Origin: Microcoleus vaginatus WJT46-NPBG5
GTDB taxonomy: Bacteria > Cyanobacteriota > Cyanobacteriia > Cyanobacteriales > Oscillatoriaceae
Direction of reading: 5' to 3'
Assembly (NCBI GenBank): GCA_019359355.1
Contig: JAHHHM010000015.1
Coordinates: 109,147-173,146 of the forward strand
DNA: 64,000 bases
Numbering within the stretch: the stretch's first letter is position 1; each line of letters starts with the position of its first letter. Position numbers and translations under genes: made by a program. Below the pieces are notes generated by a model. The model was not told the origin of the DNA. It made no database searches and worked only from the letters and a program-made list of their open reading frames with translations. Shown here in pieces: positions 41,496-51,030 of this stretch.

Positions 41496-42320
41496 CTATA
41501 AATTCTCTGGATCTTCTCCCAATTCTCGCAATCGAGCGGCTAAACGCTCAGCCCGTTGGCGTTGTACTTCAGCTTCCTGGCGTTGTTCTTCAGCTTGTTG
41601 GCGTTGTACTTCAGCTTCCTGGCGTTGTTCTTCAGCTTGTTGCTGAGCGGTTTCAGCTTGTTGCGCTGCCGCTTCTTCCGGTAATAAAACCAGATTGCCG
41701 GCCTCGTCATAAAACCGTAACCAAATTGCCGGTTGTCGTTCTACTGTTCCCTCCCAAGTTCCCAACCAAAAACCCAACGTCTCACACCACAGCCAACCTC
41801 GCTCATTCGGTGCCAGAGGCTGATAGCCTTGCGAAATATCCAAATGCCATCCTTGCAAGGAATTCGGATCAAACGGATTAAATACAAAGTAATCGGGTGT
41901 GCGGAAAGTCCGTTCGTAAATGTCTTTTTTGATGCCGGTGTCTATCTCTGCCGTACTTTCTGACATCAACTCGACGATTACATTCGGGTAGCGCCCTTCT
42001 TCATTCCACACCACCCAACCTTCTCTGGAGTAAGAGCCATCAATGTCCAGCACGGCAAAGAAATCTGGCCCTCTAAAGTCGCGGTTTCGGGCTTGGGTGC
42101 TGCTGTAGTAAACGAACATATTGCCGCCGGTGAAGAAGTCTTGCCGGCTTGCCCAAGCTTGTTGCAATGAGCGAATTAAAACATTCATTGCCGTACGGTG
42201 ACGATTCGTTTCCAAGGGGACTCCATCATCAAATATCAAGTCTGTGGGTGGCATTGGGGGTTGCCACTCTGCGGTTAATTCAGTCTGGGCTATTGCTTCT
42301 GTTGTCGCATCAACTGACAT
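41496..42320 (-). CDS. Uma2-family (DUF820) putative endonuclease with a C-terminal repeat-encoded coiled coil
   Basis: Uma2 blocks (DFFAVLDIDG...NVIVELMSEST...DIYERTFRTPDYFVFNP). The C-terminal (QQAEEQRQEAEVQR)n is encoded by a 42-bp tandem repeat. Confidence 0.8.
   Translation of the reverse strand: MSVDATTEAIAQTELTAEWQPPMPPTDLIFDDGVPLETNRHRTAMNVLIRSLQQAWASRQDFFTGGNMFVYYSSTQARNRDFRGPDFFAVLDIDGSYSREGWVVWNEEGRYPNVIVELMSESTAEIDTGIKKDIYERTFRTPDYFVFNPFDPNSLQGWHLDISQGYQPLAPNERGWLWCETLGFWLGTWEGTVERQPAIWLRFYDEAGNLVLLPEEAAAQQAETAQQQAEEQRQEAEVQRQQAEEQRQEAEVQRQRAERLAARLRELGEDPENL
41558..41641. repeat. Perfect 2-copy tandem repeat of a 42-bp unit inside the Uma2 gene
   Basis: Direct reading: GGCGTTGTACTTCAGCTTCCTGGCGTTGTTCTTCAGCTTGTT, twice. 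Confidence 0.7.
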
Positions 42321-45507: not shown

Positions 45508-46743
45508 ATGGCAACGATTAACGATAACTACCTCAAACTAAAAGCCGGCTACCTGTTTCCTGAAATTGGGCGACGAGTGAATGCCTTCGCTGAGGCAAAT
45601 CCTGACGCGAAGATTATCCGGCTAGGCATTGGCGATGTCACCGAACCATTACCGGAAGCCTGCCGCACTGCGATGATTAAAGCCGTCGAAGAAATGGGTG
45701 ATCGCGCCACCTTCAAAGGATATGGCCCAGAGCAGGGTTATGCTTGGTTGCGCGAAAAAATTGCCGGCGATGACTTTCAGGCGCGGGGATGCAATGTTGA
45801 TGCGTCGGAAATCTTCATCTCTGATGGCTCTAAATGCGACACCGGCAACATTCTCGACATCTTTGGTGATGACAACACCATTGCCGTCACTGACCCCGTC
45901 TATCCCGTTTATGTAGACACAAACGTAATGGCGGGACACACCGGCGCTGCTAACGATAAGAGCGAATTTGAGGGTTTAGTTTATTTGCCTATCACCGCAG
46001 AAAATAATTTTACCGCTCAAATTCCTGCTCAAAAAGTCGATTTAATTTATCTTTGCTTTCCCAATAATCCTACCGGCGCAGTTGCTACCAAAGAACACTT
46101 AAAAGCGTGGGTGGATTATGCCAAGGCGAATGGCTCCATCATCTTTTTTGATGCAGCTTACGAAGCCTATATTACCGATCCAAACCTTCCCCATTCTATC
46201 TACGAAATAGAAGGCGCACGAGATTGTGCAATCGAGTTTCGTTCCTTCTCCAAAACAGCAGGATTTACAGGCACTCGCTGTGCGTTTACAGTCGTGCCAA
46301 AAACACTCACAGCAAAAGCGTCTGATGGTTCCGATGTGGAACTATGGAAGCTGTGGAATCGCCGGCAGTCCACTAAATTTAATGGCGTTTCTTACATCGT
46401 GCAACGTGCGGCTGAGGCGGTTTATTCTGAGGCAGGAAAGGCGCAAGTTAAAGCTTTGGTCAGTTTCTATTTAGAAAATGCCAAAATTATCCGCGAGAAA
46501 CTGAGTGAGGCTGGAATCTCTGTTTACGGCGGTGTGAATGCACCTTATGTATGGTTAAAAACGCCCAATAACCTTTCAAGTTGGGATTTCTTCGATAAGC
46601 TGCTGCAAACTTGCAATGTGGTAGGAACACCGGGTTCTGGGTTCGGTGCAGCGGGCGAAGGTTACTTCCGCATTTCGGCATTTAATAGCCGGGAGAATGT
46701 AGAGGAAGCCATGCGACGAATTACTGAGAAGTTTAAGGCATAG
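45508..46743 (+). CDS. dapL: LL-diaminopimelate aminotransferase
   Basis: The N-terminus ([47 protein letters not shown]) is characteristic of DapL. It is a PLP aminotransferase fold. Confidence 0.9.
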
Positions 46744-46764
46744 ATCGCTCGGTTTGAGGGTAGC

Positions 46765-46794
46765 GGTGGGCTTTTGTCCACCCTGCCGGTTTTC
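46765..46794. terminator. Candidate rho-independent terminator after dapL: GGTGGG-CTTTTGT-CCCACC stem-loop followed by a GTTTT run
   Basis: 6-bp GC stem followed by a T-run. Confidence 0.35.
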
Positions 46795-46865
46795 ACAGAT
46801 TCAGGCGCGATCTCGCAGAGAATGAAATGAATATGACAAGATCAAAGAAGTAGCGATTACCATGC

Positions 46866-47285
46866 TTGTCAATGTCTCCAACTAATCCTAGTCTCGATCT
46901 TCCCTTTCACCGCCTACGTGAAGTGCGCGACGCTGTGCTCCACTTGCACAAAGCGCTGCTGCACTCAGAACGAGGAGTCTATGAGCAGTCTCATGGACCC
47001 ATCAAGTCAAAAGGGGAATTTTTCCAGCTTGTTGTCGGTGATGAATGGTTTAGCTGGTTGCGCCCATTGTCTCAGTTTATTGTCCAAATTGATGAAGCTG
47101 TCAGCGCCAAAGAACCGATTACATTGGATAGAGCAAATGAGCTATTAAACGAAGCGCGTAGCTTGCTTCACCCGGCAGAAGAAGGGACCCCGCGAGAGCA
47201 GCGTTACTATCAAGCAATTCAGCGCGACCCTGATATTGCGTTTATGCACGCAGCAGTCTCAAATTTGCTATCGCGTGACCGCTAA
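46866..47285 (+). CDS. Hypothetical protein, 139 aa
   Basis: ORF with native GC content. No recognisable motifs. Confidence 0.4.
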   Translation: MSMSPTNPSLDLPFHRLREVRDAVLHLHKALLHSERGVYEQSHGPIKSKGEFFQLVVGDEWFSWLRPLSQFIVQIDEAVSAKEPITLDRANELLNEARSLLHPAEEGTPREQRYYQAIQRDPDIAFMHAAVSNLLSRDR

Positions 47286-47625
47286 TTCATTGGCAATCGC
47301 TCTTTCAATCCGAATTATGATTGAGCGATTGTCGAGTTTTTTTTATTTTTAATGAACAAGAAAGTAGGGTTATACTAACTAGGTTGTGTTGGCAGAGTTG
47401 CATTTAGTCACACGTTTGGAATTTTTAGATTGTCAGGTGTCGCAGGAGGATTTGCTTAGGAGGTGTGCATAGCAGAGTTAGGAGTGAGATAAGATGTAAC
47501 GCTTTATGGTAAAGTTAAAGGAGCGGTTAGAGGAAAAGATTCGCTTGAATCTGGAGGAGTTGATATATATTGACTAATTCTAGGATTCTACTACTTAATT
47601 AATAGCAATTATTTAATCAAAAAAT

Positions 47626-49014
47626 ATGATTAACCAAAAAATTCAATCCAACTTAGAATCTTTTTCAATATTTGGTCTATTTGGCACACAAAAGGTAGTT
47701 ATACTTTTTAAAGAAAATGCTGTAATCATAATAGGAGAAAATGGATCTGGCAAAACAACTCTTTTGAATGCTATTTACTACACATTATCTTGTAAGTTTT
47801 ATCGATTAATGACTATAGATTTTGAAAGTATCGTTGTAAAATTTAAATCTGGAGATGAAGCTGAAATTGCAAAATCTAATCTAATTTTATCAAAAAATTC
47901 TATTAATAAAGGATCAGTTTTTTCTGGGTTTCTTGATATTATTCCTGAGCCAAAGCTTTATGAATTGCTCAGTTTGCGAGAAACTAACCCTAATTCCTAT
48001 AAGGCATATGTCTCTCGTATTTCTAGGACATATGAGATTTCTTCAAGAATGGTCAAAGAGTACATAGAAAACCTTGGTAAAACTAGTGATAATATTTTTG
48101 CTTATAGTATTAGCACAGCCAAAGAAACCATTGAAAAAAACTTAAAAGAAAAAATATTGTATTTTCCTACTTATAGAAGAATTGAAGAAGACTTAAACAA
48201 ATTAGTGGATGAAGATAAAAACTTTAGTAATGTTCACGACCCTATTCAGTTAGAGCTACTTCAGGAAAGAGATAGCGAACTTATTAGGTTTGGCATGACC
48301 GATGTTGACATAAAATTTAAGGAAATTACCTCAAGCATCAAAAACTCAGCAATTGAGTGGTTTTCAAAAGTTACAGGTGAAATGCTTAGCCAGTTAGTAG
48401 ATGGGATATCTATTGAAGATGATATGAAAACTGTGATCAAGCAACCTGAAGACTTGAAAATTGTTTTAGGCAGAGTCGGGGACAGTATACCTTCTCCTAA
48501 TCAGAAACGTATTATTGAATTAATTGAAACCGATGAGATTTTTCAGAACGAAAAATACAATCCGTTAATATATTTTTTGTCAAATCTCATTAAAATATAT
48601 GAACAACAAAGAGAGAAAGATGAATCTATAAAAAAATTTGCAAAAATTTGCAATGAATATCTTAGAAAGAAAAAAATAGTATACAATGAAAGCACAGTAG
48701 AAATTTCAGTAGTTCAAACCACACCTGATAAAACAATAAACCTTCAAGATTTGTCTTCAGGAGAAAAACAAATAATATCATTGTTCTCTAGAATATATTT
48801 AGATCCTCCCGGCGATTTTATACTTCTTTTTGATGAGCCAGAATTATCACTTTCTATAGAGTGGCAAAGGAAACTACTGCCGGATATTTTAAAGTCAGGT
48901 AAATGTAAATTGTTGTTATCAGTTACACACTCTCCTTTCATTTTTGATAATGAATTAGATGAAAATGCATTTGACCTAGAAACATTGAAAGAAGAGATAG
49001 AAGAGAAAGTATGA
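47626..49014 (+). CDS. ABC-type ATPase of the AAA_15/21 class, AriA-like (PARIS-type defence ATPase)
   Basis: Walker A GENGSGKTT, ABC signature LSSGEKQ, Walker B ILLFDEPE and an H-loop SVTHS, with a long helical insertion between them. The local GC is about 30%. Its stop overlaps the next gene's start (ATGA). Confidence 0.7.
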   Translation: MINQKIQSNLESFSIFGLFGTQKVVILFKENAVIIIGENGSGKTTLLNAIYYTLSCKFYRLMTIDFESIVVKFKSGDEAEIAKSNLILSKNSINKGSVFSGFLDIIPEPKLYELLSLRETNPNSYKAYVSRISRTYEISSRMVKEYIENLGKTSDNIFAYSISTAKETIEKNLKEKILYFPTYRRIEEDLNKLVDEDKNFSNVHDPIQLELLQERDSELIRFGMTDVDIKFKEITSSIKNSAIEWFSKVTGEMLSQLVDGISIEDDMKTVIKQPEDLKIVLGRVGDSIPSPNQKRIIELIETDEIFQNEKYNPLIYFLSNLIKIYEQQREKDESIKKFAKICNEYLRKKKIVYNESTVEISVVQTTPDKTINLQDLSSGEKQIISLFSRIYLDPPGDFILLFDEPELSLSIEWQRKLLPDILKSGKCKLLLSVTHSPFIFDNELDENAFDLETLKEEIEEKV

Positions 49015-49970
49015 CAAGATTAGATGATATCAGACAGGATCGTTTGGTGGCACCTGCTAAATATCTAGATTTCATAAATGATAGACGTCGTAAATTTGGC
49101 TCTAAACCAATATATTGTTTGTTTGAAGGTGCAGACGACTCCAAGTATTATGGGATAAGAATTGACACTATTATTAGCCCTGTTGTCTCTCCTCAAAACT
49201 TAAATTGTGGAGGGAAAAAAGAAGTGTTAAGATTCCATAGAATAATAAAAGCTCATAAGGAATATCAGGATACTAAGTTTGCCTACTTTATTGATAGAGA
49301 TTTTGACGAATCAATTAGGAGAGGTGATATACATGATATTTACGAAACTCCTGTCTATTCGATAGAGAATTTTTATACTTCAATAAATGTTTTTCAAAAA
49401 ATATTAGAAAACGAGTTCAAATTAACACCGTTGGATGACGACTTTAAAAAATGTAGCGAGTTATATCAAGCTCGTCAGAGGGAATTTCATCAAGAAACTA
49501 AATTATTAAATGCTTGGGTATCTTGTCAGAGAAAATATCAACATCACCAAGAATATTCAGGAAAATTTAAAAGAGCAAGCTTAAAAGACTTTAAGCTTGA
49601 TGATCATATATTTGTAAGTTTAGATAAAGTGACATCGAACTATACGCTTGAAACTTTAAATGAGTGTTTTTCAGAAGCTTACCATCCTACAGAAGATGTT
49701 ATACAGCAGAAACTAGCGGAATTTGATAGTGTAGATTGCCAAAAAACTTTTAGAGGAAAATTTGAAATTTTTTTTCTATTTAAGTTTTTTGTAAAATTAA
49801 ATAGAAAAAAAAACTCAAAATATTTCTCACAAAAGCCAAAAAAGAAAAAAGTTTCTTTGAACATCTCAATAGATAATATTATTACAACTTTCTCCGGTTA
49901 TGCTGAGACACCAAATTGTCTTAGAGCTTATCTAGAATCATTCAAAGACATAGAAAATACTTCTATTTAA
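49011..49970 (+). CDS. DUF4435/OLD-type TOPRIM nuclease-like protein, AriB-like
   Basis: TOPRIM-like acidic motifs: CLFEGADDSKYYG (the E-G-x-x-D block) and YFIDRDFDE (DxD). 319 aa. It is translationally coupled to the upstream ATPase. Confidence 0.6.
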   Translation: MTRLDDIRQDRLVAPAKYLDFINDRRRKFGSKPIYCLFEGADDSKYYGIRIDTIISPVVSPQNLNCGGKKEVLRFHRIIKAHKEYQDTKFAYFIDRDFDESIRRGDIHDIYETPVYSIENFYTSINVFQKILENEFKLTPLDDDFKKCSELYQARQREFHQETKLLNAWVSCQRKYQHHQEYSGKFKRASLKDFKLDDHIFVSLDKVTSNYTLETLNECFSEAYHPTEDVIQQKLAEFDSVDCQKTFRGKFEIFFLFKFFVKLNRKKNSKYFSQKPKKKKVSLNISIDNIITTFSGYAETPNCLRAYLESFKDIENTSI

Positions 49971-50159
49971 AAAAGAGAATTACAGCTATGACTTCATAAT
50001 TAGAAAGAGACGGTAGCGACATCACTAAAAAGATGGCAGGCTACCACCAATTCCATGCCGTCAATAAAGCCATTGAGCGCACCATAGCGGCAACCAACCC
50101 ATGATAGGAACTGCTACAAGTCGCTGCCGGTGACGTTGCCTTCACCAAGAGTTATAAAT

Positions 50160-50339
50160 TCACCGTTCTGCGATAACTCTATTGATTGTCCTAACCAACT
50201 TTCTCTGAAGGCGAGAATGGCAAGTTTTTGGCAGGAATGCCTGAATAATTTCACGGTTGATATACTCAGTGGCCGGCTTTGTTTCTGGGAGTTTCAAAAA
50301 TTCTTCTAAGTCTAGAGATTGAGGAAATATTTGTACCAT
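50160..50339 (-). pseudogene. Truncated Uma2-family endonuclease gene; only the N-terminal 59 aa are in frame
   Basis: Reverse translation gives MVQIFPQSLDLEEFLKLPETKPATEYINREIIQAFLPKTCHSRLQ..., a typical Uma2 N-terminus, which then hits a stop. The downstream sequence lacks the catalytic region. Confidence 0.45.
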
Positions 50340-50460: not shown

Positions 50461-50649
50461 ATGAGGATTAAAGAACAGCTCCTTCAGGAACTTGATCAAG
50501 TGCCGGAATCTACCTTGCAGGAAGTGCTTGAATTTGTGCGTTCTCTGAAAGCTGAGAAACAATCTAACATAGAGGATCGGGTATGGCAGGCATACCTGGA
50601 ATCAGAACGGGAGAGAGAGGAGGTTTACCGTCGCCTTGCAAATTCCTGA
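50461..50649 (+). CDS. Putative type II antitoxin (DUF2281/Phd-like small acidic protein)
   Basis: 62-aa ORF, QELDQVPESTLQEVLEFVRSLK. It overlaps the start of the Doc toxin gene by 14 bp. Confidence 0.5.
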   Translation: MRIKEQLLQELDQVPESTLQEVLEFVRSLKAEKQSNIEDRVWQAYLESEREREEVYRRLANS

Positions 50650-51030
50650 GTTTCTCAACAAAACTGCGGTTCTAAAGATTCATGCTAGACAAATTGCTAG
50701 CTTTGGAGGAAGTGAGGGAATCAGAGATAGCGGTTTGCTAGAGTCTGCTCTTGCTCAACCTCAAGCAACATTTGCCGGCAACCTCTACACGCTACAATTC
50801 ACGAACAAGCTGCCGCATATCTTTATCACTTGGCAATGAATCATCCGTTTATAGACGACAATAAACGGACAGCGTTTGCGGTGATGGATACTTTTTTACG
50901 ATTGAATCGCTATTCTCTGAATTTGACGGATGAGCAGGCGTATGACTTGGTGATTCAGGTTGTTCAGAGTCTGATGAGTAAAGCTGAATTAGGGAACTTT
51001 TTAGAACAAGCAATTTCACCGGCACGATAA
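50636..51030 (+). pseudogene. doc: Doc/Fic-family toxin gene disrupted by a frameshift near 50790-50800
   Basis: Frame 2 encodes ...FGGSEGIRDSGLLESALAQPQ...FAGNLYTL, then frame 1 continues ...EQAAAYLYHLAMNHPFIDDNKRTAFAV.... The Doc catalytic motif HPFxDGNKR is present, but the ORF is split into 50636-50839 and 50830-51030. Confidence 0.6.

Follow-up and report, generated by a model that had tools for sequence, protein, structure and literature searches.

PARIS (phage anti-restriction induced system) is a defence system found in 5.2% of genomes (PMC9122126), and 11 clades of it have been described. The known target of PARIS is tRNA and not DNA, which sets it apart from other systems combining an OLD-family ABC ATPase with a TOPRIM nuclease; in Escherichia coli, the nuclease AriB nicks tRNA Lys-UUU, Thr-UGU, and Asn-GUU (PMC11464382, PMC12409363). 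K39 and E393 of the E. coli ATPase AriA are needed for trigger binding and ATP hydrolysis, and their mutation blocks function; the E26A substitution in AriB abolishes defence (PMC11464382). The residues of the AriA pore are reported to be poorly conserved and are probably tuned to different triggers. PrrC is likewise a tRNA-targeting abortive-infection effector linked to anti-restriction sensing, but the protein is unrelated, combining an ABC-like ATPase and an anticodon nuclease domain in one chain; it apparently lies between the hsd genes of the EcoprrI type I restriction-modification (R-M) locus, and the R-M complex itself keeps it latent. PARIS, by contrast, acts autonomously in E. coli. 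In this study, we characterized computationally a two-gene locus, here called ariA–ariB, in a 64-kb stretch of a cyanobacterial chromosome (hereafter the window) from a metagenome-assembled genome (MAG) named Microcoleus vaginatus WJT46-NPBG5. We conclude, with a probability of about 0.85, that the pair is a functional-looking PARIS cassette of OLD-family class 4. An earlier note on this DNA had proposed a candidate of the AriA/AriB type here, and Pfam, PADLOC, and the comparison of folds all agreed with that proposal.

The published detection rule for PARIS (MacSyFinder, Rousset et al. 2022, PMC9122126) asks for adjacent, co-oriented genes, one with AAA_15 (at least 32 bits) or AAA_21 (at least 27 bits) and the other with DUF4435 (at least 27 bits). 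AriA scored 59.6 bits against AAA_21 (cut-off 27) and 55.0 bits against AAA_15 (cut-off 32.1), AriB scored 158.8 bits against DUF4435 (E 2.5e-46; cut-off 27), which was its sole Pfam match at E ≤ 1, and the genes overlap by 4 nt, so that the rule assigns the pair to PARIS. The hidden Markov model (HMM) search that the earlier note had named as a check thus placed both proteins above the AAA_15/AAA_21 and DUF4435 cut-offs. Among the PADLOC models, the best for the ATPase was AriA (7e-31), with weaker matches to PtuA (6e-16) and mad3 (7e-14), and the best for the nuclease was AriB (6.6e-39), for which the matches were limited to AriB/AriAB. No NCBIfam model scored above its cut-off for either protein.

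AriA showed a sequence match to E. coli AriA (8ux9_B; phmmer, E 8.1e-12; 462 versus 464 aa), in which the block lfDEPElsLsieWQ aligned with liDEPEisLhidWQ of the E. coli protein, giving a near-identical Walker B/D-loop. In an alignment of 39 homologues, the Walker A residues G40, G42, K43, T44, and T45, residues S377–Q382 of the LSSGEKQ signature (376–382), D403 and E404 of Walker B, and H435 of the H-loop were all invariant; K43 and E404 correspond to E. coli K39 and E393. The AlphaFold2 model of AriA (predicted local distance difference test score [pLDDT] 75.4) had an ABC ATPase fold with the helical/coiled-coil insertions (IS1/IS2) of PARIS, the long helices spanning residues 98–172 and 224–343 between the ATPase lobes. 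The top 14 Protein Data Bank (PDB) matches of this model were all AriA chains (E 3.5e-15 to 2e-12; TM score 0.5–0.67), with retron PtuA ATPases trailing at E 3e-8 or worse. The catalytic motifs and the helical insert that had been read from the sequence earlier were thus recovered, the former as invariant residues and the latter as predicted helices. Conservation per 20-residue block was 0.73–0.95, except in segments 81–160 (0.34–0.51) and 201–220 (0.44); the latter falls within residues 190–221, the one long run of low confidence in the model. These variable segments presumably form the sensor region, which fits the published variability of the AriA pore.

The acidic residues E39 and D43 (FEGADD), D95 and D97 (IDRDFD), and E119 of AriB were invariant in an alignment of 39 AriB homologues, as was R248-G249-K250. 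The TOPRIM-type acidic motifs noticed earlier therefore stand as conserved features. By order and approximate spacing, that is, in the register of the motifs and not by residue-level superposition, the five acidic residues correspond to E26, D30, D88, E90, and E122, the two-metal TOPRIM ligands of E. coli AriB. When the AlphaFold model of AriB (pLDDT 91.7) was searched with Foldseek, two solved AriB chains, 8ux9_A and 8v46_D, were the only significant matches (probability 1.0). The comparison of single-chain models with E. coli AriA and AriB, also named beforehand as a check, thus gave matches far better than any other in the PDB. On the helix after strand 2, the nearly invariant K69 together with K70/R74 could take the role of K60/K64, which hold the tRNA in E. 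coli. As a separate observation, aa ~265–282 of AriB (49800–49850) are rich in lysine (NRKKN...SQKPKKKKV) and include an insertion of three residues that the closest homologues lack; this stretch lies where internal model confidence is lowest (pLDDT 64), and the A-runs that encode it could be slippage-prone.

Set beside the PARIS of the E. coli B185 P4 satellite (PDB 8UX9, 8V45-8V49), the window pair has the same gene order, ariA then ariB, similar protein lengths (462 versus 464 aa and 319 versus ~305 aa), the same AAA_15/21 and DUF4435 domains, the same folds as judged by the best PDB matches, the Walker A Lys, the Walker B Glu, the five TOPRIM acidic residues, and a variable pore/insertion region in AriA. 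The two differ in that the structural alignments show ~15% identity and that the window pair is chromosomal and cyanobacterial rather than carried by a P4-like satellite or prophage, with no integrase or att repeats found.

The two open reading frames (ORFs; 47626–49014 and 49011–49970) are joined by an ATGA in which the stop codon of ariA overlaps the start codon of ariB, as had been described, and this overlap suggests translational coupling; the genes of homologous pairs likewise abut or overlap. In 74/74 loci with enough upstream sequence, the AriB homologue was immediately preceded by a co-oriented AriA homologue, and ariA–ariB is therefore an obligate unit across its family. In the comparison with the closest relative, the ratio of nonsynonymous to synonymous substitution rates (dN/dS) was 0.27 for ariA and 0.52 for ariB, indicating that both genes are under purifying selection.

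The exact AriA and AriB proteins are on record only in the MAG named M. vaginatus WJT46-NPBG5, under the generic names 'AAA family ATPase' and 'DUF4435 domain-containing protein', and exact-protein look-ups with AriB and DapL for strain variants returned only WJT46-NPBG5 contigs. A metagenome scan with the single AriB sequence returned nothing, and one with an AriB profile returned 80 loci. The closest relatives, on 2–2.6-kb metagenomic contigs (L088–L090), showed 74–77% amino acid identity and 82% nucleotide identity over window positions ~47445–49992; together with L180–L182 they form the window clade, a distinct branch at 58–77% identity. Wider relatives, ~40–52% identical, occur in Nostoc, Anabaena, Calothrix, Sphaerospermopsis, and other Microcoleus, and in some Bacillota and Bacteroidota. 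The cyanobacterial AAA_15/21 plus DUF4435 pairs among these belong to the same subfamily (AriA ~50%, AriB ~40–50% identical) and, like the window pair, have abutting or overlapping genes, are AT-rich (~30–33% GC), and stand alone among housekeeping or toxin-antitoxin (TA) genes. By contrast, the window clade has a 4-nt overlap in place of abutting genes and remnants of hsd genes on its flanks, which the others lack. The subfamily is rare in viral collections; a phage origin of the cassette was considered and rejected, as there was no match in GenBank phages and only six loci in IMG/VR.

The window pair is thus a routine addition to a known and widespread defence family, one more PARIS locus in a family of ~5% of prokaryotic genomes, and its value is mostly one of annotation. 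The earlier description of a divergent, likely unannotated homologue did not hold: the pair is neither deeply divergent nor hard to detect, since it falls under the published PARIS rule and relatives of ~50% identity are common in cyanobacteria, and DefenseFinder or PADLOC would be expected to call it. Our literature search found no characterized PARIS system from cyanobacteria, and new phage triggers and tRNA targets could emerge from one.

The likely mode of action is drawn from E. coli PARIS (PMC11464382, PMC12409363) and not from window data. AriA would form an ATP-bound hexameric scaffold that sequesters inactive AriB in a propeller-shaped complex. A phage protein would bind AriA at its pore/insertion region, which is poorly conserved (aa ~81–160 and 201–220 in the window protein); this trigger would come from a cyanophage and need not be a DNA mimic like Ocr. 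ATP-dependent release would then let AriB dimerize, and the dimer would cleave particular host tRNAs within or close to the anticodon stem-loop, so that translation would stop and the infection abort.

Several results weigh against the assignment as a working PARIS. Complex formation, the trigger, tRNA cleavage, and phage protection are all predicted by homology at the ~15% identity of the structural alignments. AriB gave no sequence match to the solved AriB structures, either as a single sequence or as a 39-sequence profile, and its link to them is drawn only from comparison of the modelled fold. The α2 arginines R28 and R31, through which E. coli AriB forms salt bridges with AriA, fall on A41 and S44 in the motif register and so appear not to be conserved, a difference that would be expected if the AriA–AriB interface co-evolves within clades. 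In addition, the dN/dS of 0.52 for ariB is fairly relaxed, the scan for promoters and terminators at the AT-rich cassette did not rise above the shuffled background, and the neighbouring accessory genes hsdR, Uma2, and doc are all pseudogenes, so that the cassette could be the next to decay.

The immediate flanks of the cassette carry relics of a type I R-M system, which went unmentioned in the earlier note. The hsdR fragment downstream of ariB (Table 1) matched 129 plasmid records, and 12/12 among the matches listed were annotated as type I restriction endonuclease subunit R (best E 2e-5); it was 60% identical to residues 257–286 of V. europaeus HsdR (E 1e-9) and gave a weak match to TIGR00348 (hsdR). 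Fragments of hsdR also occur just after ariB in L088 (2498–2644), L090, and L182 (~1705–1765), where they derive from HsdR ~544–592, not ~257–286. Upstream of ariA, the leader of L089 (~45–119) encodes the peptide AKLEKEIRLNLEELGYIG, which is identical at 10/16 positions to the HsdM C-terminus ATLEAEIKKNLAGLGYEL, both followed by a stop codon that comes two codons after GY. The window copy of this peptide is weaker and more degraded (E 2.3), and there was no HMM match to it and none in the plasmid database; it marks a possible hsdM 3' end. A tblastn search of ~170 homologous loci with HsdM, HsdS, and HsdR returned only the L088 and L090 fragments; judged by these alignments, hsd linkage is not a general feature of the family.

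Because the hsdR fragment lies downstream and the possible hsdM 3' end upstream, and because the closest relatives are alike, we suggest that the cassette once sat inside a type I R-M operon; in the window lineage it probably came as part of such an operon, the hsd genes of which have since decayed. Its place would then have resembled that of PrrC between hsd genes. A further step, which we offer tentatively and consider rather unlikely, is that a PARIS lineage embedded as hsdM...ariA–ariB...hsdR, like prrC in EcoprrI, outlived its R-M system with an AriA sensor tuned to cyanophage anti-restriction proteins that target that type of R-M. If true, it would be a natural case of an 'anti-anti-restriction' back-up, physically linked to the first line of defence, that carries on by itself once that line has decayed. 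The literature on the embedding of PARIS among hsd genes yielded nothing specific. The relics hint at a physical linkage of PARIS and type I R-M, in keeping with the 'guardian of restriction' idea, and it is this setting of the window clade among type I R-M relics that merits follow-up.

The same relics could be read less favourably. A pair that worked only with the enclosing type I R-M system would now be a functionless or mis-regulated leftover of hsd decay, as the hsdR remnants directly downstream of it in the window and its closest relatives, the possible hsdM 3' end upstream, and the precedent of PrrC held latent by EcoprrI (PMC12707154) might suggest. We consider this quite improbable, since PARIS in E. 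coli needs neither type I R-M nor BREX (PMC9122126), hsd genes are missing from the vicinity of ~90 more distant homologous loci, and both ORFs are intact with dN/dS <1 although the decay of hsd is older than the split from L088. Decay of the cassette itself, with ORFs still open but expression or function lost, as with the hsdR, Uma2, and doc pseudogenes, is improbable as well. All adjoining accessory genes are degraded, the dN/dS of ariB is 0.52, and the scan gave no convincing promoter; nevertheless, 781 codons have stayed free of stops and frameshifts even though chance stops are common at 30% GC, every catalytic residue and the ATGA junction have been kept, and dN/dS is <1 in both genes.

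The pair might also serve a purpose other than phage defence. AriB as a toxin and AriA as its antitoxin could form a TA-like addiction module that stabilizes itself or the locus, and the depositors of the PDB entries term AriA an 'antitoxin'; free AriB is toxic in E. coli (PMC11464382), and TA genes gather at the locus (the doc pseudogene with its antitoxin-like partner here, PIN/RelB and HEPN/NTase genes beside the homologue in L083). However, a 462-aa ATPase with a variable sensor region exceeds what an antitoxin needs, and the members of the family in E. coli have been shown to defend against phage, which makes this function very unlikely. Lastly, the PtuA and mad3 matches in PADLOC and the structural matches to PtuA might point to another ABC-ATPase plus TOPRIM system (AbiL/RloB, Gabija, class 1 OLD, MADS3-4, or Septu/retron PtuA) mislabelled as PARIS. 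Protein 2 showed no match to RloB (PF13707) or Toprim_OLD (PF20469) in Pfam at E ≤ 1, the domains by which AbiL, Gabija, class 1 OLD, and MADS3-4 would be recognized, and unlike P2 Old, Gabija GajA, AbiL, and MADS3-4, the window system has a DUF4435 nuclease and separate rather than fused proteins. For Septu/retron PtuA–PtuB, the PtuA models trailed the best AriA model by 15 orders of magnitude and the partner is a TOPRIM protein, not HNH. The chance of such a mislabelling is next to negligible, and PARIS remains the assignment that we prefer.

Table 1. Features in and around the ariA–ariB cassette (window coordinates)
Feature	Position	Strand	Description
dapL	45508-46743		upstream of cassette
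orf139	46866-47285	+	139 aa, without Pfam match; conserved on the downstream side of dapL in L015 (76% identity) and L042 (65%)
possible orf139 terminator	~47293-47345		9-bp stem and T-run, read from sequence
low-GC block	47346..49999		30.6% GC, without GCCGGC sites; contains the ariA–ariB cassette and leader
ariA leader	47445..47625	+	conserved with closest relatives; holds possible degraded hsdM 3' end
possible hsdM 3' end	47488-47577	+	in-frame stops; HsdM C-terminus-like peptide ...LEKEIRLNLEELGY-x-x-stop
ariA	47626..49014	+	462-aa ABC-type ATPase, AAA_15/AAA_21, helical/coiled-coil insertions
overlap of ariA stop and ariB start	49011..49014	+	ATGA in ...gtATGAca..., 4 nt
ariB	49011..49970	+	319-aa DUF4435/TOPRIM nuclease (predicted)
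hsdR remnant	50000..50101	+	type I R subunit, ~aa 257-286; 34 aa, then two stop codons
Uma2 N-terminal remnant	50160..50339	-	59 aa versus 172-position profile
antitoxin-like small gene	50461..50649	+	intact; weak DUF2281 match, upstream of doc
doc pseudogene	50636..51030	+	Fic/Doc toxin; 1-nt frameshift after ...ATFAGNL; frames 50636-50839 and 50830-51030

The degraded flanks mentioned earlier, a Uma2 remnant and a Doc gene split over two frames, were both present. Homologues of Uma2 sit between dapL and the orf139 homologue in L015 (full-length, 187 aa) and L042, so the Uma2 family has moved around the dapL locus; a second, intact Uma2-family gene of 274 aa lies elsewhere in the window (41496–42320, minus strand). 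The two halves of doc match positions 2–46 and 72–93 of the Fic profile, and doc is in a single frame in L032 and L071 (Scytonema and Desmonostoc loci); homologues of the antitoxin-like gene adjoin intact Doc genes in L032, L071, L021, and L030. Beyond doc lie a 234-aa ORF, a DUF2237 gene, a GNAT gene, and housekeeping genes.

The earlier note had held that conservation of the pair at this locus with native GC in all relatives would argue against horizontal acquisition. The pair was absent within 10 kb of dapL in 80/80 other cyanobacterial dapL loci. The dapL–orf139 synteny occurred only in L015 and L042, both of which continue into other genes without the pair. In the genome scan with DapL, the best relatives were only 91% identical, so this comparison covers relatives at that distance or beyond. 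A discrete integrative element was considered and rejected: neither direct nor inverted repeats bracket the block, the window lacks tRNA genes, and no gene for an integrase or transposase lies close by. The best reading is that the site downstream of dapL–orf139 is a small variable spot that gathers accessory genes, of which only the PARIS pair is still intact. What had been called a defence island does not combine several systems; it is a lone two-gene cassette among housekeeping and sensor-kinase genes.

The sharp drop in GC noticed at ~47.3–50.0 kb was confirmed by measurement. The low-GC block has 30.6% GC versus 46.4% in the remainder of the window and is the lowest-GC 2.6-kb stretch of the 64 kb (sliding mean 45.6%, SD 3.9); along the composition profile, GC falls from ~44–51% to 27–35% across roughly this interval. 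The accompanying claim that the RCCGGC motif vanishes in the block was accurate as an observation, but the absence is largely a consequence of the low GC. The GCCGGC-free gap (46361–50272; 3911 bp) is the longest in the window, and [AG]CCGGC (227 sites in the window) and the 8-mer TGCCGGCA (39 sites) were likewise not found within the block. The block would be expected to hold 0.03 GCCGGC sites at its own composition and ~0.5 with host enrichment. Because less than one site is expected at the block's own base composition, the absence of GCCGGC largely repeats what the GC drop already shows and does not count as separate evidence.

The GC contrast had also been taken as a sign of horizontal acquisition. 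The contrast in GC and GCCGGC and the absence of the pair from the 80 dapL loci speak for such an origin, and the low GC is compatible with a horizontally circulating module. However, the cassette was AT-richer than its surroundings in 39/40 homologous loci with at least 5 kb of flank, by a mean of 10 GC points; low GC is therefore a trait of the cassette family across hosts and only weak evidence for recent arrival here.

Across the window, GCCGGC occurs in 146 copies versus ~9.1–9.5 expected from base composition, a 16-fold excess that is far above that of every other 6-mer palindrome, and it has the look of a highly iterated palindrome specific to the lineage. Of the classical cyanobacterial HIP1 palindrome, GCGATCGC, the 64 kb contain only three copies. 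Six further palindromes (CCCGGG, CCATGG, CACGTG, AGTACT, AGGCCT, and ACCGGT) have 0 copies each versus 9–18 expected, which suggests restriction-site avoidance from several type II R-M systems.

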